A stretch of DNA of 45,910 nucleotides from Rhizaria sp. SCN 62-66. Its lineage: Eukaryota. The stretch is taken from positions 1-45,910 of the forward strand of contig MEDY01000243.1 in assembly GCA_001724265.1 (NCBI GenBank), written 5' to 3'. This document shows positions 19,227-40,501 of this stretch, piece after piece; the first letter of the stretch is position 1; every line of letters starts with the position of its first letter. The translations under genes were made by a program, and so were the position numbers. Below the pieces are notes generated by a model, which worked only from the letters and a program-made list of their open reading frames with translations, was not told the origin of the DNA and searched no databases.

Positions 19227-21963
19227 ATGGATAACCCCGTCGTCATGCAGCGGGGCCAGCAGGAAGCGAGTAGTCTCGTCGGAAAGTCCGATCTCCACCG
19301 CATCCACATCGCTCTCGCTGCCGTCATGAGCCTGTCTGTCGACCCATCCAGTCTGACCAGTCTCAAGAACATATTCGCTTCTTGCTGGGGCCTCTCGGTG
19401 GAAGTGCTGCAAGAGAGCAACGTCCTCGAGTTGCTGCTGCAGTCGCTCCAGCTCGCCGCATCAACATGTAACAGTAACCGTCCCAACGCTGACACTCACG
19501 CAAACGCTCGCATTGGCGCCAGCGCTGCTGCTGGTTTTGACGCAACGGACGCTTTCAACCTCGATGCCGCGGACCGCGTTGAGATTATCGTCGACCTGCT
19601 GCTCCACGTGAGCGTATCCCGCCGGGGCTCAGACTTCCTGCTCCAGTCCCGCGCGCTCGAGCGGCTCACGGCCCTGCTCAGCAGCGGCTGTCTCGCCTCG
19701 AGCGGGCCTCGGGGCGCCAGTAGCGTGCTGGACTTTGTCCGCAGGGCCGTCCGGCTGTTGCCTCCGGAAACAGAGGCCGCCACCAAGCACGCCGCGCTCG
19801 CCAACCTACTCGTCTACTGGCAGCGTGAGCACCACACGCAGCTGCGACTTCTGGAGCAGCGACTGGAGCGGCAACAGCAGCGGCAGCAGCAGCAGCAGGA
19901 AAACGAGGAACGCAAGTTTGCGCAAGAGCTTGAGCAGGAGCTGCAACAGGAGCAGCAGGAGCTCAATGCGCGTCTGATCAAGCGCCACTCCGAGCTTTGT
20001 CGCACAGTGGCCGCGCTGTGCGCTCCCAGCAGCGCGCAGAACGGAGACGGCCACGGCAGCGGCGGCCGCGGCAGCGACGGCCACGGCGGCGGCCACAACA
20101 GCGGGACACTCCCGCGCTATGCTGACGTGCACAGCTTTGTGCCGCTTATGCGCGCAGTGCTGCGGAGTCAGCAAACGCCGGACTCGGTGCGAGATGTCGT
20201 GTATATGTCATTGCTCGCCGTGTTTAAGTGCGGCAGCAGCAGAGGCAGCAGCAGCAGCGGGTACCATAGCAGCGAATCCATTAGCGCCAGCGATGCTTGC
20301 GCCGGTGACCCCAGCGCTGACGACATCAGCGCCGGCGACGTGAGCATCGGTGACAGCATCAGCTGCGGCGGCGACAGGCACAGCTGCAGCAGCGACAGCG
20401 GTAAGGATAGCAACGACAGCAATAGCAGAAGTGACTTCCGCAGCGATATTGCGGACTTCGCAGTCAGCGCCGACTTCGACTCGCTGCTGCTGCGGTCCGA
20501 CAACAACGCCTCGTTCCAGCTGCAGCGGTTCATGGCGCTGATGGATCACGCCACGCTTGCGCGCGCGTTCACGGCGGAGCGTCTGGCGCGCATTCACGCG
20601 CACGCGCGCGCGGCGGGCTTTGCGCAACAGCAACAGAGCGACTTGTACTACTTTGGCGGCTACGCAGGCGCGTTGGCGACGATGACAGCGCATTTCCCCG
20701 CCTTCGGCCGCCAGTTCGCCGCGAGTGAGGGGCTGGCGCAAGTGCTGCGCGACACCGATAGTAAGATCTCGACGATGTACCAGAGAGTCGTGGTGCACGT
20801 GCCGCAGAACACGGCGCACCTGCTTGACGCGCTGCTGTCCGCAAGCGAAGTCGACCATGACGCCGACAAAAACGCAAATAGAAACGCAGACGCAGATGCC
20901 GATTCAAATGCAGTAGCAGACGCAGATCAAGGCTATGATGTGCACAAAGTGATTGCTGCGCCTGTGGCACCTGTGACGCGCATTGTGCGGCAGCTGCTGG
21001 AGGCTGGCGCCGTGGAGTGCTGTTGCACGATGCTGCGCTTTCTCGTGCTGTGGAGCGCTGAAAAGCACAACATGGCGGGACAAATCGCGCGCGGTCAAGA
21101 CGCCGCGGCCACGTTGCTGCGCGTGTTGCGCGCAATGATTGCAAAGGGCGACACTGTCGTTGAGTCTCAAGGCGACACCGCGACGAATGAACTCGCACCA
21201 TCAGACTCTGCCACGCTTGCCACTGGTCGCAACAGCACTGTGAACCCCGTCGCGGCGCGCTTTGTGGCGGCGCGCGGGCCGCAGCTCGTGGAGTTGCTAC
21301 GCTACGCTGACTGCACGCAGGACGGCAACGGCACCGTGCTGGGAGAGCTCACACAGCTGCGCTCCCTATTGGCGCAACTCGGCGTGAGTGACGCTGACAC
21401 TCTTGTGACTAATAGCAATGGCCTTCTCGATAGCGCAGCCACGGACGATGACGTGCGGCGAGCCGTCGCTGAGGCGCGCAAGTGCCCGCAGCCCTCTGTG
21501 CGGTACTGGCGGTGCGTTTTCGGCGCCCATATCACGGCGGGCTTGGCCGCAGACACCACGGATTAGACTGAGCGCCCGCAGCAGCAGCGGCAGCAGCACC
21601 AGATGCAGACGCAGACGTCTGCTCCAGCGGCGGTGCACGCAACGGCGGCGCGGGCGCTGCTGCGGGTGCTGGCGCGCGAGAGCATCCAGGCCTACGCGCG
21701 CGGCGTGCTCGCGGCGCGCGGCGCGTCCGCGGCGGCCGACGTGGTGTTCCGGGCCGAGGTCTACAGCGCGCGCAGCGGGCGCCGCGAGCAGCACCGTCTC
21801 GTGGTGCGGCCGAGCGACGCCGCGGTGCCCAGCCACGCGGCGCACTTCCGCGCCGCCGCCGCGGGCAAGGCGCTGGGGGCCTGCGTCCACCCTCTTGGCT
21901 GTGCACCGCCGGAGGCGTCCTCGTCGCTGGCGCAGTTGCCACTGTTGCCGCGACAGGTGCTAG

Positions 21964-21999
<36 letters not shown>

Positions 22000-22523
22000 C
22001 GTTCGTTGCGTTGTACAGCTGTGGCAGCGGGCGCTGTGGCAGTGATCTCCTCGCATTGCCAGAGGCCGACACCGTGTACGGCGAATACACACACGTACAC
22101 AACACATGTGCGCAGCAACGGCTCAATGACACTGACACTGCTGTCAATACTGCTGCTGTTGACACCAGAGCTGCGTGTTACCCCGTCGGCACAGTGTTGC
22201 TGTCGCCCCGCGCCGTCCCCAGCACGCTGTCCATGTCCAAGCGCAGCGGCGCGCACGACACGCCGTGGTTCATCGTGTTCAAGCCGTGCCCGACTGCGCT
22301 CTTGCGCGGCGCCGTGCCTGTCGGCCGCGTGGTGTCTTGCGTGCCGGGCGCTGTAGTGCCGGGCGCTGTGGCGGGTGCTGAGGCGACGGCGCATGACGGC
22401 GGCGAAAACAACGCGCTCTTGGATGCCGACATGCTGCGGTGCTTAGAGGACATGTGTGCCGCGGAACAGCAGTGCAGCGACACAGAAACACGTTCACTCT
22501 TCACGTTTGACAGCTTCAGATGA
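19227..22523 (+). CDS. ARM-repeat + cyclophilin-like protein, paralogue 2, ~1,098 aa if the internal TAG at 21564-21566 is decoded
   Basis: Track ORFs 19227..21566 and 21603..22523 are in the same frame, separated only by one TAG. The joined protein is collinear with paralogue 1 across the junction and shares DIA(E/D)FA(L/V)SADFD, LRYADC, PSHAAHFR and VFKPCPTALLRGAVPVGRVVSCVPG. Final stop TGA. Confidence 0.75.
21564..21566 (+). other. In-frame TAG inside paralogue 2 (candidate recoded or read-through codon)
   Basis: Context: ACC ACG GAT TAG ACT GAG CGC CCG CAG CAG CAG CGG CAG CAG CAC CAG. The frame continues for ~318 codons encoding the conserved C-terminal domain. Confidence 0.7.
21966..21998 (+). 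repeat. (CAG)11 coding microsatellite (poly-Gln) inside the cyclophilin-like domain of paralogue 2
   Basis: Perfect CAG run, absent from paralogue 1. Confidence 0.9.
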
Positions 22524-23029
22524 GGCGCGCAATGCTTGAAACGACCTATGATACATCAATACAAAGCATAACACAAGATACGTGAAATGGCTTCGCTACT
22601 GATTGGACTATACTGGTTGATTAGTTTAGAGAAGATTTATGTATTGAGTTGATTTTTGTCTGTGAGACTAAAAATGGAGAAGACAGAAGTTTACTTAGTG
22701 TTGTCGTGACGCATCAAATGAGAGAGTGCGCAGCCCTACGTGGGGCGCTTTAGCGGTGCGTGACTTGAGTGACGGGACAAACTAGAGCGCTGTGAGAAAA
22801 CACACAAAAAAAAAGCACAGCTTCCGTAAAAGCCGTGTACTTTAAACATATAAACGTTTTTTGCAATTCAAACACGACGCTGTCTAGATCCCGCCTTTGT
22901 CACGCAGGGCAAGAGAGCGCTCAGAGGTAAGACGGCAGTCAACACTCACCAGACGGCGCCAGGCGCAACACGGGTTTGTTGTTGTTTGCGTCGTTTTACC
23001 GACTACTGCTAGTACGAGCAATCACGCAC

Positions 23030-23992
23030 TTACGCCTTGACGTAGGTGGACATGGCAGCGATACCGCAGAGGTTCTTGCCAGTGGCCATGCGGATGTAGC
23101 CGCCCTCGCCCCAGGAGGTGCCCCAGGAGTTACGGACGATGTAGTAGCCGGCGGCGGTGTCGTAGCCGACAGCGGCGATGCCGTGGTTGAGGGCCTTGCC
23201 GCAGGGGCCGGAGAAGATACCGGAGGAGTAGAACTGGAAGTTGGAGTTGGCCTCAACAGCGACGGAGACGACGGTGGAGGAGATGGCCTTGATGAGGTCA
23301 GCCTCGTCGTTGGCCTTGACGTTGGTGTAGGACTTGATGGTGGCAGCCGCAGTGCACTTGGAGGACTTGCAAGCGGAGCCCTGAGCAACGTAGGGGTAGT
23401 CCTTGGTCTGGCAGAGGCCGCCAGCAGCAATGACGTACTCGAAGGCGTTGGTCATGAGGCCACCCTGGCAGCCGTGGTTGCCGTAGGACGCGGAGCAGTC
23501 AACGAGCTGGGACTCGGAGAGGTCGTAGAGCTTGCCGTTGGCGATCTGGTTGGCACCCTCGATGGCGGCGTTGGCGGAGAAAGCCCAGCAGGAGCCGCAC
23601 TGGCCCTGGTTCTTCATGGCGTTGACAGCGCCCTCCTCGCGCCAGTCCTTCTTGTCGGCGTTGGCGGCGGGGAGGTTGCCGGTGTTGAGGGAGCGGGCGT
23701 AGTCAGCCTTGATGGGCTTGAGGCCGAGCTTGGAGGAGAACTCCTCGAAGGTGAGGTCGGCGAACTCGTTGACGGCCATCTGGTAGGTCACATCGGGCTT
23801 AGCGTTGTGGGCGATGATGGTGTTGAGGTTGGCCTTGAAGGTGGAGTACTTGGAGAAGAACGAGTTGGAAGAGTACTCCTTGTTGTAGGTGGACACGAAG
23901 CGGGTGAAGAGGAACTGAGTCTGGTCCTCGGTGAGGGGAGCAGCAGTAGCGACGGCGACGGAAGCAGCAAGGATGGCGATCTTGGCGGCCAT
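23030..23992 (-). CDS. Papain-family (C1A) cysteine protease, cathepsin L-like preproprotein, ~320 aa
   Basis: Signal peptide MAAKIAILAASVAVATA (ATG 23992). I29-type prodomain (AVNEFADLT). Catalytic motifs QGQCGSCWAFS (Cys), LNHGIAAVGY (His) and YYIVRNSWG (Asn). Strong codon bias, no intron in the CDS. Stop TAA. Confidence 0.96.
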   Translation of the reverse strand: MAAKIAILAASVAVATAAPLTEDQTQFLFTRFVSTYNKEYSSNSFFSKYSTFKANLNTIIAHNAKPDVTYQMAVNEFADLTFEEFSSKLGLKPIKADYARSLNTGNLPAANADKKDWREEGAVNAMKNQGQCGSCWAFSANAAIEGANQIANGKLYDLSESQLVDCSASYGNHGCQGGLMTNAFEYVIAAGGLCQTKDYPYVAQGSACKSSKCTAAATIKSYTNVKANDEADLIKAISSTVVSVAVEANSNFQFYSSGIFSGPCGKALNHGIAAVGYDTAAGYYIVRNSWGTSWGEGGYIRMATGKNLCGIAAMSTYVKA

Positions 23993-25353
23993 TTTTAGCA
24001 CAGACTGTGTTGTGAAAGAGAGAGGCGGAGATTGATAAGCGACGGGCATAAGATCAAAAGGAAGGATTTGTGAGAGAAAGTCAGCAATAAAAAGAAGCAT
24101 TTCGTCAAAGGCACTTTACTAAGTGATGGAAAAAGTAAAACAATCTACAATACAAGGAACTGTAACGCTTTGCCTTGCATTTTCATGAGAAGCATATGGT
24201 GCAAGGGATGCGGCGATGACGACAGAGATACATTCTGCCGTTCGTTCCGAGCCCGATACAGGGCACAAAACGCGCAGTGAGGCACAAACAACTCTGAATC
24301 AAGATAGAACAGAGATGGTGTGATCATAGCAGCGAAGTATTACCCGGTAACGCGCACAGGAAGAGGGTGTTTGTGTTCGGAAACAAAAGCGGCGAGCGAC
24401 GTCGCTTGCTCCTACGAAACCCCATCGAACTTTGGAGACACGATTTCAGGCACACAAAACGCATTTGTTCAGCACACAAAAAAGCTTGAAGAACATTTTG
24501 GAGGACCACGTGCGCTATGAATACAAATTCAACACCTGTAACCAGCGTGAAGCGCTTAATCATTCAAAGTTCATCAACCCCCTTGAGAGCTACTCTCTGT
24601 CCGCTCGAAGGTGCGGCTAATCTTTCTTGACGCGGCCACAGTCCGTCGGTCCGTCGACGTCGACCTGCCTGCACTCAGGCTGAAGGAACCCGAGGAGAGA
24701 TTGCGTGTTTTGACATGCATAATCAACCTGGATTGCCTTGATATTTTGTTTTGTGGCCAAAAAGAATGCATTGTGCGGTGGCAATAAAAAATACTTGTGT
24801 TGCTTCCGTCTGTGGATTGAAAAATAGAGTCTTTTGGGAAAAGGTAAATTCAAAGGAGCGCGGTTCCTTAAGAAAACACTTGATATATCGCGACATACGC
24901 AAGATCTCAAAAATAAAAAGATGTTTTAACATTGCAAAATGCACGGGCTACCCTGCAATGCAGGTTAAATTGATGTGCCTTTCATATCTTTTCAGAAATC
25001 ATTCATGCGAAGCTATAATGATGTTCGCAAGAGCGACGTAGACGCAACTACTACTAGGACTGCACGCGACTACCACAAGTTCAAACTCATGTAAAAATCA
25101 CATGAGTGTACAGAAAATCAACATATGTATTCTATTAAAGAGCTTTTTTTCTCATATCATCAATGGTCTCGAGCATCTCCTCACTCGAACAAACCCTCCC
25201 GTTCTTACCACAAGCAAAATGCTGGTCCAGATATTTTACTGATGAGGACTCTGAAACACGATGACTTCACTGGCACCACATGGCTTCGCATAATACGCGT
25301 GATATATCCCCCCTGAAACACTCTCGTCCTATTCAAACAAGCGGTGTTGACTC

Positions 25354-27942
25354 TCAAAAGTCGTATCCGTAGGGGTTCTTGTTGCTCGGCGGCACGCGCC
25401 CGTCACCGCTTCCAGCGCCAGCGCCACTGGAAGGGGCGGCGGCGGCAGCGGCGGCCCTGTTCTGCGCCATGTCAACAGCGCTGAGGCCCTGGGGTCCGCC
25501 GTTGCCGCCGCTGTGCAGCGCAAGCCCCGCGAGCCTGGCGTTGACGCCGAGCGCGTCGTGTCCTGCGCCGGCGGGGAAGTCGACGTGCGTGCCCTCGGTC
25601 CCGTCGTCCTCGTACTCGTCGTCGCCGTCGCCGTCGCCGTGGTCGTCGTCACCGTAGCCGTCGTCGTCGCCGTCACCACCCTGGCCGTAGCCGTCGTCGT
25701 CGTCGCCGTGCGCGGCGTCGGGGTTCCAGTCCAGGTAGTCGGGCCGCTCGGCGGCGCGATACTCGTCCACGAGCGTGTGCGCGACCTCGCGCGCGTCGTC
25801 CAGCTCCTCCAGTCCCTCGGCAAACAGCGAGCCGCGCCCACGGTAACCGTCCAGGAACGCGTTGCGGCGCCGCAGCAGGTCGTACTGCCGCAGCGACTTG
25901 AGGAACAGGCTGTGGATCGCAGTGTTGTTGGCCATCATCAGCCCGGACACGCGGTGCGAAGACTGGGTATCGTCGCAAACAAACAGAAGACAGATTGGTA
26001 AAGAGCAAAGAATAAGCATAAAATAAGATAAACAATCCATATTAAAACAAAATATCAAAAAAAAAGTTCCTAATAGAACACAATAAAAGTGCATTTTGGG
26101 AGCCTTCTATGACCATATCGTAGTTTTCTTCCTCAGTTTGTTTGCCTTATCGTTTGGACGTACGTGAACGAAGGGCGACTTCTTGGAGATAGTGACCTGC
26201 ACGCTGGCGGGGCCCCAAGGAATAAAGCGCGCAAGACGGCGCTCACGCACGCGCTGCAGCGCCTTGTGCACGTCTCCGGGGTCCACGTCGCCCTGTCAGT
26301 GTGTAGCAAGAAAAAACAAAGAATACAGATCGATCGACAAGAATTAAAATGAGAAAAAGATAAAATAAGATCATATCAACATGAGACTGTTTGAAAATCA
26401 CATCGAGTTACAAATAACACAAAACTACATTAGTTTAATAAGAAAACACAACAATATTAGCGACTAACGAATAACGCATACCTGGATGACGTTGAGGATG
26501 GAGAGGTAGAGCCCCTTACGCGTGGGGCACGACACCATCGTGTTCTTGGGCTGCAGCAGGCGCGACATGACGTCGTACACGGAGGTCTTGCGCACCGAGC
26601 TGGCGCCGTTATCGCCCGTCAGCGGCGTGTAGCCCGTCAGCAGGAAGTGGCAGCGCGGCGTGGGCACCAGTCCGCCGACGAGTCCGGCCAAGTCGTTGTT
26701 GGTGTAGCCCGGGTACCGCAGCGTCGCCGTGGCCGTGGCCATGACGGTCGACACAAGCGCGTTGGTCTGGCTAAAGGTCGGCGTCGCCAGGTGCAGCCGG
26801 TCGGCCGCGATGCGGTTCAGCGCCGCGTTGTCGAGCACGATCACGCAGTCGGCGTTGAGCGTCAGCCGCTTCAGCGTCAGCACGCTGTTGTACGGCTGCA
26901 CCACCACGTCCGAGCTCTCCTCGTGGTTGGGGAACACCGAGTACGTCTGGATGACCTTCTTCGGGTAGCGGTCGCTGATGGCCTCAAGCAGGAAGGAGCC
27001 CATGCCGGAGCCCGTGCCGCCGGCGATCGAGTGGCAGAGCTGGAAGCCCTCGAGCGAGTCTGCGCCGTCGGCCTCGCGGTCGAGCGTCTCGATCACCTCC
27101 TCGGCCACGGACTCAGCCAGCGCGTAGCCCGCGGCCCAGTTGTTGCCCGCGCCGCCGCCGTCCTTATGTACGAACACGTTCTCGGGGTTGTATAGCTTGC
27201 GCTGCTCGCCAGACATGATGCCGTTGATCACGCGCGGCTCCAGGTCCAGCAGGATCGACCGCGGGACATAGTGGTCGTCGTCAGCCTGAGCAATCAACAG
27301 TGCAGTTACATACAGAGAACATGGAACAATACAAGATCGAGTGAGTTAAGCTAAAAATGAGAATTATCGAGACTATACAACAAGATGAGGATAAATTCCG
27401 CGCTAAAATCACAATAGAACTTAGCTTAAGTCTTAAATATAGTCATTATCAATCAGTGCTTATCGTTTTAGCTTTGTTTTCCTTAGCTTTGTTTTGCTAT
27501 GTTTGAGCTTATAAGAGTTAAGACGTACCTGGTAGAAGAAGACATCTTTGCGGTCGTTGCTCTGGGCGGCAAAGTCGTGGAGAATGCCGTCGAGGCTGAT
27601 GCCGTGCTCCTCGCACAGACGCTTCCAGAACTCAGTGCCGACTGCACACAGAGACAAGAGCGATAAAGACAAAGTGTAATCATTGCAAGAGCGAGATAGC
27701 GAGAGAAATAACAAAGTGGGTTGTGAGCATTGTTGTAGTCCAATAGAGCAAAAATGTTGAATTAGATTCAGAGGCAAGACTAGACAGTTGCGCACAAAAT
27801 CATTGCATGGTGTGGCTCTAAGCAAGATGCTAGTGGCACAGCGGCTTTGAGATATGCGGAGAACACAAAAGATTTCAAGGAGTTTTGACGCACTTTGGTT
27901 GCCGCACTGGCCGACCTGAAGAGTAATAATCTCGTGAGGCAT
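25354..27942 (-). CDS. TUBG1: Gamma-tubulin, 5 exons, ~567 aa including a long C-terminal extension
   Basis: Exons 27942..27894, 27641..27529, 27285..26482, 26292..26164 and 25962..25354. Motifs [88 protein letters not shown] and [10 protein letters not shown]. Stop TGA. Confidence 0.97.
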
Positions 27943-28913
27943 TGTTGTGTGATGTTATAGCTTCAATGAGCGCGTGTGAAGTGTGTTTCTGTGTGGACTA
28001 CAACTCTGAAGCGAAGGCGCGCGCGTTGTGCGTGTGCTTTAGTGTACGAAGTCAGGAACCAGCTCTCTGACGCGGATGCAGTAGTAGCAGGTGTAACAAA
28101 GCGTTAAAAGTTGAAGTGGTAGCGCAGGCTCGTGTTCTCAACAACAAACAACAGCAACACAGGAGCAGTCGCGAAAGATCACGGGTGCGTGCACAGCTAA
28201 AGCGCGAACGAAGAGAGACGACTGGAAGAGGATAACAAGAGACGGGAAAGACAAAGTGAGCGCGCAAGCAAAGGAAAGCATAGCGTATGCAGCGGAATAG
28301 CAGTGATAGACGTACACGCAACGACTGCGGGGCAGGCGGTCGCTAGCAAGGAGCAGCGAAGACTAGCGCGGGAGCTGTGCGATGCTGAGTGGTGGCGGTA
28401 AGAAAGAGGCTGCAGAGGGGAACAAATACAGTGAAACACAAAAATAAGATTTGATTAGGTATAGAAGCATGTAGTTAACCAGCGTTAAAGTGTCAATACT
28501 CTCATAACGAGTTCAGGTATGCGTGGGGAGAAAGGACGAATTCAAACTTGGAGGCGCTCGGTGTGTGGAGGGCGCGCAGAATCGGACAAGAGTGATGCGA
28601 GATAACGCGTTCGACAGTTGAAATAGCATTTTACATCCAATCACAAATATGTGTCTGAATAATCATAGTTAAATTTTAGCTCCAGATAGCGATCACAATG
28701 CCGTTTACCACGAGTCTATTACAATGCGTCTCAACCGAGTGCTCTCGCTTGCTTTTGGTTTGACCGAAAGCCCATCTTCCACCAGTTTCAAGCGTCACCT
28801 ATTTTATATGTAAGAACAATACGAGCCTTCTAAGATATAATTGTAACTTTTTATTAACACATGTTGCGTTCGTCTTCTTAGGCGTTGTTCTAGGTCTTCA
28901 TATCCTCGGATTA

Positions 28914-30008
28914 ATGCAGAAGCCTGGAAACGGCCCCAAGCGGCCCCCTCTGCTGGCCGCCGCTCTCTTCGCCGCAGCTGCTCCAGCCGCGCCCCACGAC
29001 GGTTCCGATGTTGACTGTGACAGCGATGACGACGGCTTGCGGACTCCCTACGACTTGAGCTCCTCTTGCGACTCGTCACGCTTCGCTACCCCTGATCCCG
29101 AGGCTGCCGCTGCAGCTGCTGCTGCAGCTGCTGCCGCTGCCTCGGCGGCTGCAACATCAACACAATCAGCTGCAGAGACCGCAGTCAATGCCTCTACTGT
29201 TCCTGTGACTGATATCAAGTTCGCAACTGCAAGCAGCAGCATCTTCAGTCCCGACCACAGCGATCACGACGAGGACGACGGTCTCGCCGGCATCAGCAAC
29301 TACTACGAAGACAAGCATAACAACAGCAAGATCACTGCTCCTGCTGTTGCTGCGACCCCGACTGCGACTACGACGAGCAGCGCCTTAATCGCCGGCAGCA
29401 GTCACAAGGAGGAGGACCTGGAGGAGTTTCTCCGCGACTACGGCGGCGGCGACGACGACGACGACGACGAGTATCTGAACGAGTTGCACGCGATGAATGC
29501 GGGCCTGGTGTTTGTCTCACAGCCGCAGGCCCCTGTGCACAGTCACGCCCGCAATCACAGTGACAGCTGGAGCGACAGCAATCACAACCACGACAGTGAC
29601 GCTGATGATGGCAGCGGTGTTGATGACAAGGATCATGGTGACGATGAGGAAGAAGAAGAAGAAGAGGAGGAGGAACAACAGCCAAAGCTCAGCACCAACA
29701 CTGGCAGCGGCAGCACTACAGCCCCAGCCAGTGACCATGACCGTGACCATGTGGATGGCAGTGACCGTGAGCCCAGCGAGACCGCCAGTGACGGCGAGCC
29801 TGACTCTCTGGACGCTCTGGACGCTCAGGACACTCAGGACGCTCTGGATGCGCTGAGCGCTTTGGGCGTTTTGGGGGAGCCGGTGGAGGACGCCGAGGCC
29901 GCCGCGGCGGGCATTGAGCGCGTGCTGCCGCTGTGGCGCATCTTCGAAGAGTCGGACGGCTCTGGTGCTGAAGACTCCAGTCAGAACAACAACCACCACA
30001 ACGACAGC

Positions 30009-30081
<73 letters not shown>

Positions 30082-30389
30082 GTGTCAAGAGTAAGAGCAA
30101 GAGTGCTGAGTTTGGCGATCGCAGTGACAGTGAGTTTGAGTACAACAGTGGCAGCGACGGTGACGACGGTGACGGCGACACTGCCAGCGCAATCAACAGC
30201 AAGGAGACTGGTGTGAAGAGTAAAGCGAAGACGCGTGCCAGCACGTATGACGCCGAGTTCTTCGGGACTTCGGACGACGATGCTGATGATGACGCTGGCG
30301 GTGACGACTTAGATGAGGACTTGGGCAAAGTCCTTGAAAACGACAAGCAATACGCCAAGTGGAAGCAAATGTTGCGTCACCTGCGCTAA
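28914..30389 (+). CDS. Acidic, low-complexity (Asp/Glu/Asn/Ala-rich) hypothetical protein, 491 aa
   Basis: Single ATG-initiated ORF between AT-rich spacers, ending TAA TAA. Short ordered-looking islands (LEEFLRDY, IERVLPLWRIFEES, KQYAKWKQMLRHLR). No family recognised; an upstream exon cannot be excluded. Confidence 0.7.
30009..30080 (+). repeat. (AAC)24 coding microsatellite (poly-Asn)
   Basis: Perfect 72-bp AAC run, in frame within 28914..30389. Confidence 0.95.
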
Positions 30390-30794
30390 TAAGCTTCACA
30401 AGCAACAAGCGACCATCTGGTCTCTCTGACGATACTTAATGATGACTTGATACTTAGACTAACCCGTACTCAAATGAAACTTAGAAACTTGATCGTTGTT
30501 CGCTTCGTGCGCAACTCACTGCATGGATTGATGTTGATGAATACTAATACAAAGCAAATGTTACTTCACTTCTCGCGTTATTAATATTAAGTAATAAGAG
30601 TTGTTGTGACAATGCATCATCAGCAGCAAAGTGAGGAGCGGATACGGCACAAATACTGTGCTACGTGTACGCATAGCACATCAATGGCACCTCGGAGTAA
30701 TATTAAAGTCTTACGGGCACTGCGGGTGAGCGCGGGGAATCGCGCGGGGATCCAAAAAGGTAAGTGCGCGGCATAGTGCGGCGCGGGGCTAAAC

Positions 30795-30802
30795 AAAAAA
30801 AA
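30795..30802 (-). terminator. RNA polymerase III oligo-T terminator of tRNA-Asn
   Basis: T8 on the - strand, starting 2 nt after the tRNA discriminator base. Confidence 0.75.
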
Positions 30803-30804
30803 TA

Positions 30805-30878
30805 CGCTTCTGGCTGGGCTCGAACCAGCGACCTTGCGGTTAACAGCCGCACGCTACTACCAACTGAGCCACAGAAGC
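30805..30878 (-). tRNA. tRNA-Asn-GTT: tRNA-Asn (anticodon GTT), intronless
   Basis: Minus strand reads GCTTCTG TG GCTC AGTTGGTAG TAGC G TGCGG CT-GTT-AA CCGCA AGGTC GCTGG TTCGAGC CCAGC CAGAAGC G: a full cloverleaf with A and B boxes and no encoded CCA. Confidence 0.97.
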
Positions 30879-31386
30879 ATCTACTTAGATTTCCTAGTTA
30901 TAACTATCAAATGTAAGTATTTGGATGTGCCGCGGTCGAAATTTTATATATCAATATCAAATAAAAACAACAAGGTGTTTAGCTTTAGAATAGTTTCGTA
31001 TGTAAACAATATTAGATAAAAACAATAAACCTAAAAAGCCTATGTGTCATAATTAGCATCGATATATTCAGGGATTTTTAAGTGTGCAATATAAAAAAAG
31101 AAAAAAATGTTCATCGTAATCATTGATCATCAAGTCCAGTTAAGCTAGCCCAGTCACGTTGGATATCTGTAAACCTAAGATTTAGTTCAAATTCGATTAT
31201 GGGGAGATCTTTGTTTGTTTACATCAGCGTATGTATTGTTTGATTCTATATATCGCATCATTCTGATTGAATGACCAGCATTTTCATTCCTCATCACTGT
31301 CACAGTCACAATTTTGTTGCTCACAGTCACAACAAATAAGCTTAATATATTCCACTTGCTCACAGTCAATTTTCACGGTTTCTTCC

Positions 31387-32997
31387 TCAGGGGCCGCCGA
31401 CGGTCCAGCCGAAGGCGAGCGCGGCGCCGTCCCTGGCGGCCTCGAGGCTCTCCAGCTTGTCGCCGAACCCGAACGCGCTGCCGGGCGCCGCCGAGGGGGC
31501 CAGGTGCGCTTTGGGCCGGCCCGCGAGGTGGTTGTTGTTGACGACGCCCGTGCGCTTGCAGACCTCGTCCAGCAGGCGGCCCACGGTCCAGCGCTTGTCG
31601 GCCCAGACCACCGCGCGCAGCCCCGCGCGCACAAGCGCGGGCGGCAGCCGCACAGTGCCTGTGACCGCGGCGGGCGCCGTCGCGGCCGTGGGCAGCGCGG
31701 CGGCGGATGGGAAGCGGATCACGAGGCACACGCGCGACGCGATGGGGATGGCGCTGTCACCCACGGCCTCCTGCTGCAGCTTCTGCAGTGCGGAGCCCGT
31801 CGCGCGCGCCCCGAAGCGGCCCTCGGGCGCCGGCAGGTACGACACAGGCTCCGCGGGCGCCGCCATCGAAGTCGCAGTGGCAGTGGCTGTGGCAGCGGGG
31901 GATAGAGCGGGCGGCAAGCCGGGCGACGGCGAAGGGGAGATCGCGGGCGACATAGCCGGAGACCTGCCTGAGGCCGGAGACAGCAAGTGCGGCGGCGTCC
32001 GCGAAGCAGAAGCAGCGAGGCTCTGACCGGGAGCGGAGAGAATCGGGCGGCTTAGGTTCGGCACTGAGTACACTGGCGGCGCCGCGCTCGCAGTAGTTGC
32101 GGCCGCAGCCGGAGCATTCGTCGCGCTCGTGGGGGGAGCGGGGCCGTGCGCCACACTCGCACTGGCACTAGCGTTGCGATGCTGTTGCTGCTGTTGTTTC
32201 GCTTGGATTTCGCTCTGCCTAGCCTCGCGCTTAATGCGCAGCTTCTCAAGCAGCGCCTGCGAAGCTGACTTGATCGTGCCAAAGAGGCCTCCCTTGCTAT
32301 CCTCAGCGCCTGCCCCTGCGCCAGCATTGGCAGCGGCAGCGGCAGCGGCGCCGGCCTTGCGGTTGGCGACGAGCGCCGCGCGCGCGTCCCGCGCCCGCTG
32401 CGCGTGGGCCGACGCGGCCTGGTCGCAGTGATGATCGTCGGGGAAGCGGTGCGACAGACAGTAGTTGCCAAAGCACTTGGGGCACTGGATCACCGAGAGC
32501 TTGTCGCGGTTGGCGCAGGAGCCCGCGTCGCAGTGCCAGGCCTGCCGCAGCGCGCGGCGTTGCTCATCGGAGAGCGCGAGCAGGTGCTCTTTGCAGCCCG
32601 ACTGGATGTGGCGGTCCACGAACTCGTCCTTGGAGCCGTCGCGCGGCACGCGCACAAACTGCGCGCACACGGGACAGCGCGGCATCGAGTTGACGGTGGA
32701 GATGTCCTCGACGCAGGCGTGGTGTGTGAGCCCGAAGTGGTCCAGACAGTAGTATTTGTCGCACTTGTAGCAGTGGTGCGGCAGAAAGTCCAGCTGCTTG
32801 CATTCGGGGTCCGCGCAATGGCGGCCCACTTCGATCAAACCCTCGCCAGACTGCGCGCGCGCAAGCAGGTCCACGGACACGGGCGCTGCGGGCGCCTTGC
32901 GCGGGTCTGAGCCGTCGGGGTTGATGTTGAACTTGAAACCCGCGGATGGGTCGTCGTCGTCCAGCGGAGATTTCTCTTTGCCTTTGTAAAAAGCCAT
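31387..32997 (-). CDS. AN1-type zinc-finger protein (AN1 - C2HC - AN1 - linker - ZFAND1/Cuz1-like ubiquitin-like domain), ~536 aa
   Basis: ATG 32997. AN1: GRHCADPECKQLDFLPHHCYKCDKYYCLDHFGLTHHAC. C2HC: PRCPVC..VDRHIQSGC. Second AN1: CDAGSC..CPKCFGNYCLSHRFPDDHHC. The C-terminal ALQKLQQEAVGDSAIPIASRV..DKRWTVGRLLD..NNN resembles the ZFAND1 UBL region. Stop TGA. Confidence 0.88.
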   Translation of the reverse strand: MAFYKGKEKSPLDDDDPSAGFKFNINPDGSDPRKAPAAPVSVDLLARAQSGEGLIEVGRHCADPECKQLDFLPHHCYKCDKYYCLDHFGLTHHACVEDISTVNSMPRCPVCAQFVRVPRDGSKDEFVDRHIQSGCKEHLLALSDEQRRALRQAWHCDAGSCANRDKLSVIQCPKCFGNYCLSHRFPDDHHCDQAASAHAQRARDARAALVANRKAGAAAAAAANAGAGAGAEDSKGGLFGTIKSASQALLEKLRIKREARQSEIQAKQQQQQHRNASASASVAHGPAPPTSATNAPAAAATTASAAPPVYSVPNLSRPILSAPGQSLAASASRTPPHLLSPASGRSPAMSPAISPSPSPGLPPALSPAATATATATSMAAPAEPVSYLPAPEGRFGARATGSALQKLQQEAVGDSAIPIASRVCLVIRFPSAAALPTAATAPAAVTGTVRLPPALVRAGLRAVVWADKRWTVGRLLDEVCKRTGVVNNNHLAGRPKAHLAPSAAPGSAFGFGDKLESLEAARDGAALAFGWTVGGP

Positions 32998-33505
32998 AGA
33001 ACTATTGTGGAGGAAAGAAGACAAGAGAATGAAATGTTTAATGTTCGTTCACGTGTGGCATATGCGTGGTATTGCTTAACAGCTTTGTTGTGAGGCTGTG
33101 GAAACGCTGATGTGGAAGTAAGGACTGGAGCGGTTTTGACCGTTCACTCGAAATGCCGAAAAAGTTGCATAGACGCACTTTACAAGCGCCAATAAAAACA
33201 AAATTTTAAGAAAATAATATAAAATAAACTTTAAACACAATGGCGTATGATTGATGGATCTCTACGATAAAGATGCCTGGTATTGCTCATTTTAATTTGT
33301 TGCTGCGACCCCCTTGACTGAGGGTCACCACAAACGGGAAATCGATCCTTCTGGTCGAGTTCTTTTTCGGTTTCAAGTTACAGCGGTGTAATAACAGTCA
33401 TAAAAGGAATGTCTATCGTGAATCAACGTATTTTATTGTCTATATATCGCATTTTAAGTATATTTTAAGCTATTTAACAATGTATCACTGACATATCCAT
33501 CCAAT

Positions 33506-36500
33506 TCATATGTGATTTGTCGAGGCATCTGATTTGTCGCACACGACCCACAGTCCTTTGACCATCCCCAGGGCATCCAGCGTCTTGGTCTTGACCTTAG
33601 CGCCCTCGCTCTCGCCCTCTGCCTCAGCGCCCTCAGCAGGCGGGAGGTCGTAGTAGTCTTTCTTGACGCCGGTGCCGCCGAAGCCGTTGCGGCGGTACAT
33701 GCGCTGCGACGCCTCGTTGTTCGTCGCGGTGTCCAGAGTCAGCGTCAGCGTCAGAGACGGAGCCAGAACAGTTGTTGTTTTGCTCACGGCAGCAGCGTCA
33801 GCGTCAGAGCGCGCGCATGCGGGACTTGAATTGTGCAGCTCAACACTGAGCGCTTCATCTTCACTGTCATCTCCTTCGCGTTCATTCTGGTAATTCTTCA
33901 CAGCAGCAGCAGCAGCAGCAGCGTCACCGAGCGGCTCATACGCAAACTGCGGCACCAGCGGCCACACGGGCTGCCGCCACAGCTCAGACACACTGCTACT
34001 CGACTCTGAACCCTTAGACTGAGTGCACTTAGATCGAGTGCACTTGGGCTGCGGACCGGCGCGCTCCCAGACGGGCTGCCACCACCACAGCGCAGCATGC
34101 TCACGCAAGTCCCACAGCAGCGGAAGCGCGCTGCGCGTGCACAGCAGCAGCCACGCCTCCGCCACGAGAGAAGTATCACGCTCAGTCTCACCCTCACATT
34201 CAGTCTTACTCTCAGTCTCAGCTTGAGCATCATTCGACTCACTGATGTGCATGCCAGTCTTATTGTGGTAATGGCCAGTCGCCGCGGCCGCGTGAGATAT
34301 CGCACGGCGCGCCTCGGCGGCGGCAAGCGGGCCCCAGGCGCGGCGCATCGCGGCCGCGACGGCCTCGGCCCAGAGCGCGCAGTGAACGCCGCGCGCGCGG
34401 AGGAAGTGGCCCGGCTCGCGCGCCCGCAGCAGCGACGACAAATCCCATACAGTCGTCGCTTTATCGTTCTCTCGCTCTGCCGCTGAGTCAGTCGCTGTCT
34501 CTAGCTTTGTCAAAGCAGACTTAGACTCGCTTCCTGAGCACCGAGTGAGCTGTTTCTGTTCCTGTTCCTATTTCTGTTGCTGTTTCTGTTGCTGTTGCTG
34601 TTGTTGTGTGGGTGTCGCTCCGCAGGTGAGATGGAGCATGAACGCGCCGACGCCGCGGCGCTGCCACTCTGGCGCGACGCCGAACACGCAGAGATACGGC
34701 TGCGGCGGCTCAGTCGGCGGGGCTGGGACCAGGCCTAGCATGGTTGCGGTGGCGGAGGCCAGCGTGGCCACGGACGAGGCCAGTGCAGACACGGCGGACA
34801 CAGCGCGGCCCCATAGTGACAAAGCGGGGGACGCAGTCACCGCGGTGGGTTGTTGCAGTTGTTGTTGCAGAGATTGTTGTTCGTTCATATCGACAAAGGG
34901 GGCAATGGCATCCAGTGAACAGACTAAATCAGCACGATTGGCTGAGAAATAGTCCAAAAACGCGCCGTGCTGCGTTTGTCCTTCTTCCACAATCTCGCTC
35001 CTGCTCAGGGCCATCGCCCGCCGCAGCCGCATAAACCACTCACCAGGCTCCGTTCCAGACACAGACGCAGATAGCGACGCAGAAGCAGTTGTAGAGTGTT
35101 CGCTAGAGAGCCTAGATTGGCTCTGAGAATGCTTATCACAGGCTGCTGCGCTTCCTGTCACTGTCGCTGCTAGAGTCACAGCGCCGGTGCGCCGCCGGTG
35201 CGGCAGCGACTGCGCCCTGGGCGCCAGCGCGCGGCGGGCGGCGGCGAGCGCGGCGGCGCGCGGGCGTGAGTGGCGCAGCGGCGGCGCGTACGCAAACAGG
35301 CGCCGGGCGGGGGCGTGGCGCGGGAAGAGCAGCGGGAAACACTGCGCGCCCTTGCTCGATAATAGCAACGGCGACGACGACACTGGCGCTTGCGCTGAGG
35401 CTGAGGCTGAATCGGAGTTAGAGTCGGAGTCAGAGTTGGAGTTAAAGTTGGGCTCAGAGGGTTCAGAGCTGCTGTTTGTGGTGGCAAACAAGCTTGAGCT
35501 CGAGCTTGTGTTATTGTGGCTGTCAAATGTAAGGGGAGTCGTGGGAATGTAAGGGGCCGGCACGGCTTCGTTCAGCACCGGCTTCATACGGGCGACTGAA
35601 AAGGCAATGACGCTCTCTTGTCCGTCTTCCGGTGCTGAGGTCTTTATAATACTTAGGCCGGAGTCGCAGGTACTTAGATCAAGCGCGGCGTCGAGGTCTT
35701 GCTGCAGGACGACGTCGTTGAACGTCACAACAGGAGCCGTCGTCGCGGTGTTGCTATTGCCGCCGCCGCTGTTGCTCGGGTTACAACGGCCGTACACGTG
35801 TGTGCCGCGATACAGCTGCGACGACCGTGGTGTTGGTGTTGCAGCAGCTGTTGTAGCAGCAGTTGCAGCGAGGTTGTCAGTCACTGAAGTAGTCGTAGTC
35901 GTTGTTGTTGTTGTTGATGTTGCCAGGTGCCAACAGTCGCCGTAGCACTCGTACAGCAACGCTTGCGGTGGCGCGGTGGTGCCGGCAGCAGAAAAACTCG
36001 TAGTATCAGTGCCAGTCGCAGAGCGAAAGATGCATGGTGAGGCCGATGCAGAGGCAGAAGGAGTGATTTCGTGCCAGTGGCGGCTAAATGGGCAAAAAAG
36101 GGTCCCAGCAGCAGCCTCCTCGTCATCAACCTCAGTCTCAGTCACAGCATTAGCGGTGAGTCGGCGGCGCAGCGGCGTCCAGAGTGCGCGCGCACAGCGT
36201 GCCGGGGCAAGCCCATGCCGCGCAGCGCCGCGGGCAAGCGCGGCAAGCAGCGCGGCGCCGGGGTCATGGCCGGGCGCGGGCGTAGCGACGAGGAGGTAGG
36301 ACGAGAACTCGTCCTGGGTGAGCAGCGCAGGGTAGTATTCGGCGTCGTATTTGACCGGGAAGAGCGCGTCCTGTAGCGGCAGTTTTGAGATATAAGACAG
36401 ATTAAAGAATAAGGTGTCTCATGGTATGCGCAAGATATGAATAAAGACGTATTGTACAAGGTATAGCTTTGCAGAGATGATGGGTGGGAACGTACGTGGA

Positions 36501-36588
36501 GCGATTGCAAAGGATTTAGGTCGCGCGGTTGTACCATACGGAGTTTGACAAACCGAACCCCATTTAGTGGAGAGGAAGTTCTGCTCAT
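33506..36588 (-). CDS. GNAT N-acetyltransferase (Naa50/Naa60-like) expanded by large insertions, 2 exons, ~985 aa if the internal TAG at 34570-34568 is decoded
   Basis: Exon 36588..36496, phase-0 intron 36495..36371 (GTACGT..CAG), exon 36370..33506. N-terminal LRMVQPRDLNPLQSLHDALFPVKYDAEYY; beta3 VIAFSVARM; acetyl-CoA motif A YLCVFGVAPEWQRRGVG (~34640-34700). After the TAG come motif B LTLDTATNNEASQRMYRRNGF..KKDYY and LDALGM (~33570-33750). Stop TGA. Confidence 0.8.
34568..34570 (-). other. In-frame TAG inside the GNAT gene (candidate recoded or read-through codon)
   Basis: Minus strand reads CAA CAG CAA CAG CAA CAG AAA CAG CAA CAG AAA TAG GAA CAG GAA CAG AAA CAG. The TAG occupies a CAG slot of an (NAA CAG)n repeat, between GNAT motifs A and B. 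Confidence 0.75.
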
Positions 36589-37142
36589 CAAAAGCGCCAG
36601 ATAGAAGTCAATATACTATTTTACGGACCTTACACGGCGCGCGCCATGTCGGAAATCGTGGGCCACAAGCGCGTTGCTGTAGGCTGTGGTTCGCGAAAAA
36701 AGCGGGCAAGCAGTGGGGCCGGAGAGCCATCAAGATTTTTACATTGACCAACTGAAGTAATCTATGAGTATAACGGACTTCAAGTGGTGTTATTGTTGTG
36801 TCACAAGCTGTTTATATCGTTATTTGTTTTTGAAATTTGGTCACACGTTGTTATTTTTGCTGTGCACGTGGTTGCCGCAATCGCTCTCCAATCACGATCA
36901 AGGACGACGCACCCACTTCTAATTCAGCGTTATTCTCGCGTGTACCAACAATAACTTGGCGTGATCGCTGCACGAGACGGCGAAAAAGTGCAGTTTAAAT
37001 TGGCACAAAATGGATTCACCCCACATGACTGCGATCTCGCAGCTGTTTATCACACCCGAACTTTGGTAGTTCCTGCCCCTCCATGCTTTTCTTGATTTCA
37101 CTGTTGGTGCTCACGAAGTTTCAACCCCCGCCATTTGTACAG

Positions 37143-39510
37143 ATGCGTGCCCCCGTCCGCGCCCTGTGCGTTGCCGCCTCGGCCCTTCTTCTTTGCTCCT
37201 CGCTGGCCTCCGCCGCCGAGACGGAGACGTTCGTGATTCCCTCCACCTTCCCGGCCACGATCCCGGCTGGCGCGCCCGCGCCGTCGTTCCGCGCCGTCAT
37301 GGGCCCCGACTTCGTCTTCGACCCTGCCGCGGCGTACAGGCTGTCCTTCTGCGATAGCGCTGTCCCGGCTGCCGACACGACCGTGACGGCTGCCTACGTC
37401 CACGCCTCTCTCGAGCAGTTCGCTTTCTCCGGCGAGAACAACAACTGCACGGCCAAGCTCGCCGCCGCGGGCTCGACCACGCCCGTCGAGCTCGGCGCCG
37501 TCGCCTTTACCAACGAGTTCCCCGACACCGTCGTCACGCAGTTCCTGCCCACCTTCTACAACGCGCGCGCCGCGACGGCCGCCACGATCTTCGTCGTCTC
37601 GGGCACCGGCCTCGACGTCGTCAAGAAGGTCGTGGTGCACACCGTGGCGCCCGAGCTCTCGTCGCTCTTGCGCTATGCCACCAGCTACGTCTACAACGAC
37701 GACGGCTCCGTCTCCCCGGCCTCATCCCCCGAGTTCGCCCTGGGCGAGGGCGACGACGTCTCCGCCGAGTGCACGAAGCTCATCGCCACGGCCACCACCG
37801 TCGCCTGCACGCTCCCGTCCTTCCCTGCGACCGCCCAGGTGCCGCGTGTGCTCACGGTCACTTACCTGGACGCCGCGAACGCGCCCGTGGCAGAGCACAC
37901 GATCGAGGCGACCCCGGCCGACGTGCCCGTCAACTACGCGCCCTCGGCCGTGGCGCCCGCCGTGCTGCCCACCGGCGTCACCACCAAGCTCACCGTTACC
38001 TTTCCCAAGCCCGTGCCCGCGACTTACCCCTGGTCTGCCGTCTTCGTCAACTCCGCGACCATGCTGCCCGTCATCGGCGCCACCGTGTCGCCCCTTATCT
38101 TCGCCGCGGACCGCCTCTCGGCGACCGTGGAGGTCACTGTGCCCGCCGACGCCACCGTCACCGGCAAGTACGCACTGTCGCTGGGCCAGGCCGCACTGGT
38201 CTCCGCGCCCACGGCGTACTCGTACATCAACGAGCGCGACGAGGAGGTTTTTGTCGTTGACGGCGCGGACTCGGCCAAGGCCGCGAAGCAGTCTCTGTTC
38301 AACACGGCCGTCGTGGCGCCCAGCTCCTTCGAGCTCACCGTCTCGCAGTCCGTGGTGACCATCGGCGCCGTCTTCCCGGGCGCCGTGCACGTCAACACGC
38401 TCTCGCTCGACGGCACGCACCTTCGCATCGACCTCGCGTCGGGCACCTTCCCCGCCGGCGGCGCCGTTACCGTCAACGGCAAGTACGCCGCCGTGGTCTC
38501 GGCCAGCCCGCTCATGGTGACCCTCAAGGGCGTCAAGCTCGAGGCGGGCCCCGTCACTGTGGCGCTTAAGGACTCGCTCAAGGACGACGCCAAGACCGTC
38601 GCCGAGCTCGCTGAGGCGTTCACAGTGTACGGCGCCGCTGCGGACAAGGTTTACCTGGCGCACGAGTACGCCATTGCGCCGCTCGCCGTCGCCGTGGGCG
38701 CCACCACCAACGTTATCTTCACCATGACGAACCCCGAGAAGAAGGCCGTGACCGTCGACGTCGACGCGACGACCGGCATCGTGCCCGACACCAAGCACTC
38801 CGCGGGCTCCACTTACGTCACCGTGCCCTTCAAGAACACCGGCAAGGAGATGTTCAAGAGCGTCAACGTCAAGTTCCACGTCGGCGACACCGTGCTGCCC
38901 GCCGTGATGCAGTACGTGCCGCAGCCTGTGCCCAAGAGCGTCACTCCCGCCAAGATCGACATCAAGGTACGTCCGCAACAACGTTTCTATGATGTTTCCG
39001 TCATAAGATCGATAATATATATATATCTATTTTTTTGTTATCACAACTCTCACTTTTCGTGCTTTTTGTTTTGTTTTGTTCACACTATAGTCCAAGACCG
39101 CGACCAAGGTGACCGTGGGCCTCGGCGCCGACTACACTGGCACGCTGCCGCTCGTGATCACGCTCTCCGACGCCAACGCCAAGGTCACCGACTCGGCCTT
39201 CGACGCCAAGACCCACGCCGTGACCGCGAACGTAGACTGCACCACCTGCACCATCGGCTCCAAGGTCCTCACCGTGACCTTTGCCTACTCAGCCGGCGTC
39301 CACGACACGTCCACGACCGTGGAGGTGGTCAACACCAAGTCCGGCGGCGGCGACGACTCGAACGTGTGGTACTGGGTGCTCGCTATCGTGCTCACTGCCG
39401 CGCTGGTCGTCGGCGCTTACTTTGGCTACAAGGTCTACAAGCGCCGCCAGGTCCGCAACACCATGCTCGCGCAGTCGCTCAACGAGGACTCGCCCTACCG
39501 CATGCTCTAA
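37143..39510 (+). CDS. Type I membrane protein with a beta-rich (IPT/TIG- or Ig-like) ectodomain, 2 exons, ~747 aa
   Basis: Signal peptide MRAPVRALCVAASALLLCSSLASA. Exon 37143..38966, phase-0 intron 38967..39090 (GTACGT..TAG), exon 39091..39510. TIG-like strings (FVVSGTGLD..CTKLIATATTVACTLPS), TM helix VWYWVLAIVLTAALVVGAYFGY, and a short tail KVYKRR...SPYRML. Stop TAA. Confidence 0.85.
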
Positions 39511-40501
39511 GCGCGAAGCAGAAAGATACTGACCTCCGCTTTGTGCTGCGACGTGCCGCGACAGTCTAGCTCGGCATCTCTGTGCTTTTCTTGCTGTCTC
39601 AGCCTGATTAACTTTTGTTGAAACAAATTTGACTTTGTTTCATTTGGCTGCGTCTTAAACAGCTCACAATGTGTGTACCTCGTTTATGCAAGACTCTGTG
39701 CTAACTAAGTGTTCATAGCTCCATGAGCGAACTTGTAAACAACGATGTAACACATTTTCAGTTTCCTACGCCGCTAAATTCAAACACAACTGTCGCGCGC
39801 TCGCTGCGCTTGTGTCTCTCCTTTCTTGCTTGACACGACACCCGCCACCTTAACCAATATTTTGCGTCGACTTTTTGTTTTGTTGCTGTCGTTTGGGTTT
39901 TAGATATCAACGAACCCGTTATCTTTTGGATTTGCTTTCCTTTGTTTTTCTCCATGGGATCTCATCGTCACATCATTGAGTGTTTGTCACCCGACCATGC
40001 GTGACTGCTCACATTTATAAGCTCTTGCGTTTACCACTTACGAGTAGAGTCTTTTTCAAACACTCACATTTTATGCATGTTTTACAGCCGATGACCATCC
40101 ATACAGTCTGTTTATTTTGAATCCATTATCATCGATCCCCGCTTTGACTATGTTTATTATCCTTTTCAAGTTATCGTGACTCTGTCTGGATTTGGTCCCA
40201 CAGTCGCGCCAGCTCGGTCTCTCTGCAGAGAGCCAGCAAAGGACGATGACGAGGCTGATTTAGCAAGTCGGATGCGTGCTCATGCCATCGTCATAATAGT
40301 TCTTCACAAACGATTCCGTATTGTCATGATTGTGAATATGCTGTAAATATACTTTTATTTCTCCAGACCATTTCTTTGCTCTCGAACTCATCGTGATACG
40401 ATCCAACTCCGCCCCCCTTGTCCTGGCCCTCTGCTAGCCCTCCTTTCCTCGAGCCAACAGATACTTTCTTTCTACAAATTGGACGGCTTTCCGCGTGATC
40501 A

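Follow-up and report, generated by a model that had tools for sequence, protein, structure and literature searches.

Two genes interrupted by an in-frame TAG

The stretch analyzed here (contig MEDY01000243.1 of assembly GCA_001724265.1, 45,910 nucleotides, hereafter the window) is a gene-dense eukaryotic contig with a GC content of 55-72% in exons and of 30-45% in spacers and introns. Two unrelated genes in the window are each interrupted by a single in-frame TAG codon: a member of an ARM-like/cyclophilin-like family, referred to here as WIN2 (19227-22523, forward strand), and a GNAT acetyltransferase gene (main exon 33506-36417, reverse strand). The initial annotation had taken these codons as signs of a variant nuclear code, and both positions and frames were confirmed. 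TAG1 (21564-21566, forward strand) is codon 780 of the WIN2 frame, preceded by GAT and followed by ACT. TAG2 (34568-34570, reverse strand) is codon 617 of 970 in the GNAT gene; it lies within a CAA/CAG/AAA repeat and is preceded by AAA and followed by GAA. Both sites are found in variable or low-complexity stretches. As also stated initially, no in-frame TAA or TGA was present in any gene model: a tally of 10,855 codons, which takes in a little intron sequence of the gene at 1-8698, gave 2 TAG, 0 TAA, and 0 TGA.

WIN2 comprises 1098 codons, has no intron, ends in TGA, and encodes a helical N-terminal part and a putative C-terminal cyclophilin-like domain. Its tandem paralog WIN1 (16004-18619, forward strand; 871 amino acids) contains no in-frame stop and likewise ends in TGA. 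The two share 37% identity over 460 columns spanning the position of TAG1, and WIN2 aligned unbroken across TAG1 with WIN1 and five metagenome homologs of 741-935 amino acids. In this family alignment, TAG1 is located in a variable linker. Downstream of it lie 40 of the 59 invariant family columns, all of which are retained in WIN2. Database entries held a 779-amino acid product ending at TAG1 and the open reading frame (ORF) after it, each on five contigs (Logan and ENA). An ATG occurs 12 codons after TAG1, and gene callers had entered the 306-amino acid remainder as a protein of its own. Exact look-up of WIN1 and of the guessed GNAT half-products in the protein collection returned no entry; other start codons were probably called.

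The designation ARM-cyclophilin, given to both family genes initially, appears plausible for the C-terminal half. A model of the C-terminal 306 amino acids of WIN2, based on an alignment of 18 rows, had a predicted local distance difference test score (pLDDT) of 70.7 and a predicted template modeling (TM) score of 0.73. The top Foldseek rows for this model were nearly all cyclophilins, with weak E-values of 0.03-0.5 and TM scores by target of approximately 0.5, and PF00160 was found in 28 of 30 Atlas feature matches. On the other side, the family, which is lineage-specific, had no match in Pfam, and a PDB profile search with the C-terminal domain gave 0 hits.

In the GNAT gene, the frame is open from 36418 to the TGA at 33506-33508 except for TAG2. 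This open stretch is longer than the ORF from ATG to stop, and 353 codons remain open after TAG2. A first exon was predicted by eye from frame and splice motifs (36540-36588, reverse strand), separated from the main exon by a 122-nt intron (36418-36539, GTATGG...GAG); the gene probably starts at the ATG at 36588. The Pfam domain PF00583 is split colinearly by TAG2, with profile positions 50-81 matched before it (E = 5.7 × 10−4) and, weakly, positions 96-116 behind it (E = 0.21 when this part is taken by itself). Among 7997 candidates of 533-1698 amino acids, no homolog of the full 970-amino acid product was found at E ≤ 0.001, so that only the split Pfam match ties the two halves together. For both genes, the earlier statement that conserved sequence lies 3′ of the TAG was borne out, since the WIN2 family alignment and the PF00583 pieces continue past the respective codons. 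Neither of these TAGs, nor any of those in a related organism described below, falls within a Pfam-aligned column. The GNAT domain itself is interrupted by several hundred low-complexity residues between an N-terminal FPV.Y region, motif A, and a C-terminal motif, a layout that is unusual for an acetyltransferase.

The 11 complete genes of the window end in TAA (five genes) or TGA (six genes) but never in TAG, exactly as initially listed. TAA terminates the genes for COX15 (9252-9254, reverse strand), RPL35A (11815-11817, reverse strand), a cathepsin L-like protein (23030-23032, reverse strand), and a membrane protein (39508-39510, forward strand), as well as the ORF at 28914-30389 (30387-30389, forward strand). 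TGA terminates the genes for a RING-finger protein (15217-15219, forward strand), gamma-tubulin (25354-25356, reverse strand), and an AN1 zinc-finger protein (31387-31389, reverse strand), together with WIN1, WIN2, and the GNAT gene. Two further candidates for terminators were rejected. The raw ORF at 37083-39569 suggested a gene ending in TAG, but its frame runs through an AT-rich intron; the true end is the TAA of the membrane-protein gene at 39508-39510, and the TAG at 39567-39569 belongs to the 3′ untranslated region of that gene. A TAA at 5105 sits in an intron of the gene at 1-8698.

For random nonsense changes in the window genes, the expected share of TAG is approximately 64%, and the probability that two of two lesions are TAG is p = 0.41. 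The absence of TAG from 11 terminators has a probability of p = 0.17, 0.09, or 0.04 if TAG is expected to make up 15, 20, or 25% of stops, respectively.

TAG-specific excess in family copies of a related organism

Relatives of WIN1 and WIN2 were sought by scanning metagenome contigs of the Joint Genome Institute (JGI) with the family alignment, which yielded 23 loci (L001-L023, approximately 90 kb) from one metagenome; the corresponding scans of genome_contigs and viral_contigs returned no relatives. The loci have a GC content of 47-62%, and one of them is identical to P0008 and another to P0004. With at least 23 copies in this relative, compared to two copies in tandem in the window, the family has, as judged from its sequences, undergone a young and fast-evolving expansion in the relative.

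Alignment of family proteins to the 23 loci by tblastn passed 19 stop codons, of which 15 were TAG, three TGA, and one TAA. A second tally was confined to frames bounded by TAA or TGA and to their homology-supported parts. Here, 10,200 family codons included 21 TAG, 1 TAA, and 0 TGA, to which two internal TGAs (in L017 and L019) have to be added; the third TGA of the tblastn count is the terminator of L014 itself. Based on the codon usage of the family and a range of transition and GC-to-AT biases, TAG should account for 43-47% of nonsense changes, and the probability of observing at least 21 TAGs among 24 stops is approximately 2 × 10−5. Frameshifts in L017, L019, and L023 identify these copies as true pseudogenes, and both internal TGAs fall in this set. 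When only the intact copies were considered (i.e. without L017, L019, and L023), 18 TAGs stood against one TAA and no TGA (P ≈ 6 × 10−6).

Close paralogs in the relative differ by a synonymous divergence (dS) of 0.2-0.36, with ratios of nonsynonymous to synonymous divergence (dN/dS) of 0.4-0.55 and up to 0.73. Since their duplication, TAGs have arisen in them, whereas TAA and TGA have not; therefore, selection still purges TAA and TGA, but not TAG. This asymmetry is hard to explain without read-through of UAG. Two loci, L004 and L018, carry two to three homology-supported TAGs each and no other lesion in approximately 800 codons. Conserved sequence was also detected past the TAGs: for instance, L013, L014, and L016 have the second Cys of a CxxxxC motif there, and L008 shares a tail with TGA with L006. 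When the window genes and five non-family genes of the relative are taken together, 0 of 16 terminators are TAG (p = 0.01-0.07).

The TAGs at positions 785 of L013, 2361 of L014, and 479 of L016 arose independently and occupy three neighboring alignment columns in the variable spacer of the CxxxxC motif, approximately 20 codons from the usual C-terminus. This cluster could be a permissive spot or could consist of true terminators of shortened proteins. At approximately 700-960 of L016, a ubiquitin-like ORF lies behind the family gene and shares its frame; read-through of both TAGs at this locus would carry the product on into that ORF.

The base directly preceding the in-frame TAGs of the relative was T at 13 of the 21 sites, compared to 26% T at third positions (P = 6 × 10−4). 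With the two window sites added, T preceded 14 of 23 in-frame TAGs, compared to 7 of 27 true terminators (Fisher p = 0.02). As the comparison was unplanned and one of a few contexts examined, we regard this bias as suggestive only. No clear bias was found in the base at +4 or in the codon following the in-frame TAGs.

The organism and other features of the window

DNA nearly identical to the window was found in bioreactor, wastewater, and activated-sludge metagenomes from several studies, in part in RNA-labelled libraries. COX15, which is split in two by an intron, is present in the window, and hence the organism is aerobic; the initial conclusion that an intact COX15 implies aerobic mitochondria is compatible with this. 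The gamma-tubulin shares 70-79% identity with sequences from many supergroups. A single-gene tree was calculated with FastTree from 37 of at least 120 matches (17 with an organism name and 20 picked without one). In this tree, the window sequence pairs with the contig protein P0018 and lies outside the clade of fungi and animals, albeit weakly. Look-ups in the Atlas yielded no taxonomy that could be used.

Eight introns were read in the genes for gamma-tubulin, RPL35A, and the membrane protein and in the gene at 1-8698. They are AT-rich and approximately 120 to 260 nt long. The 5′ splice site is GTAYG in seven of them and GTGCGT in the remaining one, and the 3′ end is YAG. The gene at 1-8698 (reverse strand) combines the ORFs at 1-4941 and 5105-8698, which are joined by an AT-rich intron of approximately 165 nt (5′ site GTACGT near 5168, 3′ site CACAG near 5003). 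It exceeds 2800 codons, extends at its 3′ end beyond the window, and has no match in Pfam.

A tRNA-Asn (GTT) at 30804-30879 (reverse strand) is the single RNA gene found in the window, on which ARAGORN and Rfam concur. Upstream of the RING-finger gene, the region 12640-14300 has a GC content of 60-77% and overlapping long ORFs on both strands without a clear gene model. A frame on the reverse strand (13602-14915) would require read-through of two TAGs; the region looks like non-coding or antisense low-complexity sequence. At the cathepsin gene (23030-24100, reverse strand), contigs of runs X5 and X6 include, at high depth, a variant that differs by numerous substitutions and short indels (23063-23219). 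This diverged variant therefore points to related strains or species with a highly expressed cathepsin in other wastewater samples.

Candidate residue and tRNA

At the columns aligned to TAG, E, S, Q, and K scored best in a BLOSUM comparison, whereas hydrophobic residues and Trp scored worst; neither this comparison nor the column likelihoods had power, as both failed to recover known residues in the family. The columns are variable and mostly polar, and the residues facing TAG in close paralogs are Q, S, K, D, A, L, H, F, or R. Gln had been proposed initially as the residue inserted. It is plausible, given the CAG/CAA-rich context, but unproven, and it suggests itself as the candidate since a single anticodon change would turn tRNA-Gln(CUG) into a tRNA reading UAG (PMC5304391). 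The assignment found no support in the columns, from which no consistent residue emerged, and TAG contributes only 2 of 487 Gln-type codons. No tRNA gene was found in the 23 loci of the relative.

Evidence for and against translation through UAG

Taken together, we consider translation through UAG, perhaps an inefficient one, to be rather probable for this lineage. If UAG termination had been lost at the level of the lineage, a TAG-specific excess in intact gene copies would be expected. Of the initial proposal, which offered either a reassignment of UAG to Gln or systematic read-through, the sense reading of UAG thus gains support from the intact family copies of the relative, whereas Gln does not.

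According to this model, UAG would no longer be an efficient stop in an uncultured, aerobic, GC-rich protist and its relatives, with termination left to UAA and UGA. The ribosome would pass the in-frame UAG and insert an amino acid, which would yield full-length proteins from both interrupted window genes. Decoding at the ribosome may rely on a tRNA whose anticodon is CUA, or on near-cognate tRNAs combined with a weakened recognition of UAG by eRF1. If decoding is inefficient or costly, UAG would be a poor terminator and be avoided at gene ends. As a costly sense codon, it would also be purged from constrained genes and drift into fast-evolving or low-complexity sequence. Its cost may further depend on the upstream base, with U just before it being favored. 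Inefficient decoding would therefore leave TAG very rare, restricted to weakly constrained genes and regions, and preceded by U.

Several observations weigh against this interpretation. The TAG pattern of the window by itself is real yet within chance, and TAG makes up 0.4% of the Gln-type codons there. TAG is not spread across gene classes, as a regular codon is in the UAG-only codes: the non-family ORFs of the relative, which include a P-type ATPase, a 1929-codon TIG/ephrin-receptor-like/TRP protein, and a GNAT, contain a single TAG in 7332 codons, compared to 15 expected at the family rate (P = 4.5 × 10−6). This one TAG is near the N-terminus and probably upstream of the start. As TAG is near-absent from these genes, it is not a freely used sense codon. 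Within the family, 5-25 codons separate the TAGs of L008, L013, L014, and L016 from the customary end. These four may be true terminators, in which case they would amount to 4 of 19, a share that is normal for TAG. The statement that TAG never terminates a gene is therefore limited to the 11 genes of the window and the five non-family genes of the relative. Terminators of family members are, in addition, mutually non-independent, and three family copies of the relative are real pseudogenes. Column likelihoods at the TAG sites were negative for all 20 residues, with none consistently preferred. No tRNA(CUA) was found in the 136 kb of window and relative loci combined, where tRNA-Asn was the only tRNA and which are too little sequence to inform on this point. 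For run X3, the listed pieces stop at 21512 and resume at 34920, and neither TAG is spanned by a listed piece of X3, X5, or X6, RNA included. Finally, we infer the trait for the window from the relative across a family identity of only approximately 30-55%. As regards a clean REASSIGNMENT, the rarity of TAG and its bias between gene classes fit an inefficient or ambiguous UAG better.

The principal competing explanation retains the standard code. The window TAGs would be young nonsense alleles, of the CAG-to-TAG type, fixed in a clonal wastewater population and giving rise to truncated or split products or fresh pseudogenes, and the relative would harbor a decaying multigene family. We consider this unlikely overall, although for the window taken alone it is possible: TAG is the commonest nonsense product to be expected in its GC-rich genes, both sites lie in stretches that are variable or of low complexity, and the ATG shortly after TAG1 could start the remainder that gene callers entered separately. 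The fast evolution of the family (dN/dS of 0.4-0.7), the frameshifts in 3 of 23 copies of the relative, the lack of TAG in well-conserved genes, and the four near-C-terminal TAGs, if these are real stops, also agree with it. However, this explanation requires recent null alleles in 2 of approximately 14 genes across 46 kb, yet no second lesion occurs in approximately 10,900 codons, and the usual features of pseudogenes (mixed lesions, lost residues) are missing from the window genes, with WIN2 retaining 40 of 40 invariant columns beyond TAG1. Decay further predicts more TAA and TGA than TAG (55:45), as opposed to the 18:1 excess of TAG in intact copies, and it does not readily yield multiple TAGs without another lesion, as in L004 and L018. 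Likewise, the T preceding TAG does not resemble the context of CAG codons, 50% of which are preceded by G.

Repair at the RNA level would also leave the code standard. In this case, the A of UAG would be deaminated to inosine (UAG to UGG, read as Trp), a mechanism that filamentous ascomycetes use in ADAT-dependent premature stop correction. Of the stop codons, A-to-I editing can rescue TAG alone. Besides PUK1, another 70 genes of Fusarium graminearum are reported to need editing of UAG; 62% of the sites are in hairpin loops, and U shows a slight enrichment at two bases ahead of the edited A (PMC11156358, PMC4817773). Here, T precedes TAG at 14 of 23 sites, and a hairpin loop is formed at 15 of 22, but the same holds for 75 of 139 out-of-frame TAGs of the same genes (p = 0.25), and the in-frame sites fold less stably than these controls, with a weaker mean folding energy. 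Trp stood at or close to the bottom of the ranking for the aligned columns, none of which is Trp-rich. An avoidance of TAG at gene ends is not expected from editing, and the position of the organism outside the fungal-animal clade of the gamma-tubulin tree, although weak, speaks against it as well. No A-to-G difference was listed at either TAG in two RNA-labelled runs, where coverage of the sites is unproven and contigs drop minority variants. We therefore consider editing improbable. Even less likely is an artefact, be it an error of sequencing or assembly or a hidden intron holding the TAG. The window does stem from a metagenome assembly, TAG2 lies in a simple repeat that attracts cross-mapping contigs from other genes (with loose ends near 34607), and depth near both TAGs is inflated by CAG/CAA repeats. 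But the product ending at TAG1 is found on five contigs from two sources, contigs of run X1 (6992 and 10,847 letters) are identical across both TAGs, albeit X1 may be the source sample, and frame and homology run straight through both codons. No AT-rich segment of approximately 120-260 nt with GTAYG or GTGCGT at the 5′ site, like the introns read here, was found around the TAGs, and the sole GT..AG candidate at TAG1 would remove a conserved family motif. Assembly artefacts and hidden introns are thus largely excluded.

Building on translation through UAG, a more specific proposal can be advanced tentatively. A deep-branching aerobic lineage of wastewater protists may be at the ambiguous-intermediate stage of a change of UAG from stop to sense, having dropped UAG as a terminator and tolerating it in weakly constrained sequence, preferentially after U, with UAA and UGA as strict stops. 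If true, this would be the first natural snapshot of the uncoupling of UAG from UAA before full codon capture. The ambiguous-intermediate and codon-capture models could then be tested in nature, as could the way in which eRF1 loses UAG yet keeps UAA. Standard gene callers split genes of this kind, as illustrated by the separate 779- and 306-amino acid entries, and annotation of metagenomic eukaryotes of this type would need another code table.

Comparison with known UAG-only and ambiguous codes

The cases cited in the initial annotation, i.e. Iotanema with UAG as Gln, a rhizarian with UAG as Leu, and some ciliates, agree with the literature (PMC5304391, PMC11687900). Searches of the literature on UAG codes in activated-sludge eukaryotes and on newer UAG-only codes gave no matching organism, the supplementary tables of the code papers being outside their scope. 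The window and its relative share with UAG-only codes that in-frame UAGs occur with frame and homology continuing beyond them (two window genes and 21 sites of the relative) and that UAA and UGA are not tolerated in frame.

In the fornicate Iotanema spirale, UAG is reported to encode Gln and UAA and UGA to serve as stops; UAG accounts for approximately 8% of Gln codons and occurs at conserved Gln positions within housekeeping genes (PMC5304391). The window resembles it in combining in-frame UAG with gene ends in UAA and UGA, and the Gln-rich context of both window TAGs fits Gln. In contrast to Iotanema, and speaking against a sense UAG of that kind, the TAG share of Gln-type codons amounts to 0.4% in the window, where TAG is restricted to variable or low-complexity stretches, with no residue fixed. 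As judged from COX15, the window organism also differs in being aerobic. In the rhizarian exLh (Sainouroidea), UAG encodes Leu, and 384 in-frame UAGs in 71 genes are described, with UAA (56) and UGA (15) as the only terminators (PMC5304391). That code is likewise UAG-only, and the lower frequency of UAG in highly expressed genes of exLh parallels the bias between gene classes observed here. It differs in that Leu and other hydrophobic residues were among the worst fits at our sites and in that TAG usage is orders of magnitude lower here; the window gamma-tubulin also stands apart from the two rhizarian sequences in the (weak) tree.

Further UAG-only codes have been described from phyllopharyngean ciliates (Leu, Gln), Protocruzia tuzeti (Gln), and Scotinosphaera (Ser) (PMC11687900). 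As in these lineages, the meanings of UAG and UAA would be uncoupled here, but their codes rest on many genes, compared to 46 kb of window and 90 kb of a relative. Our organism is GC-rich, has conventional spliceosomal introns, and is no ciliate. The UAG editing of ascomycetes (PMC11156358, PMC4817773) shares the occurrence of TAG-only stops in intact genes and a U-rich upstream preference, but our sites show no hairpin enrichment and no Trp in homologs, and the organism does not group with fungi in the gamma-tubulin tree. Ambiguous codes, as in Condylostoma, karyorelict ciliates, and Blastocrithidia, have codons that may act as sense within a gene and as stop close to its 3′ end, which would fit the four near-C-terminal TAGs of the relative; however, the ambiguous codons are abundant in those organisms, whereas TAG is rare here. 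Among these systems, the window and its relative probably represent a variant of UAG-only recoding, with low-usage and possibly ambiguous UAG, in an aerobic protist.

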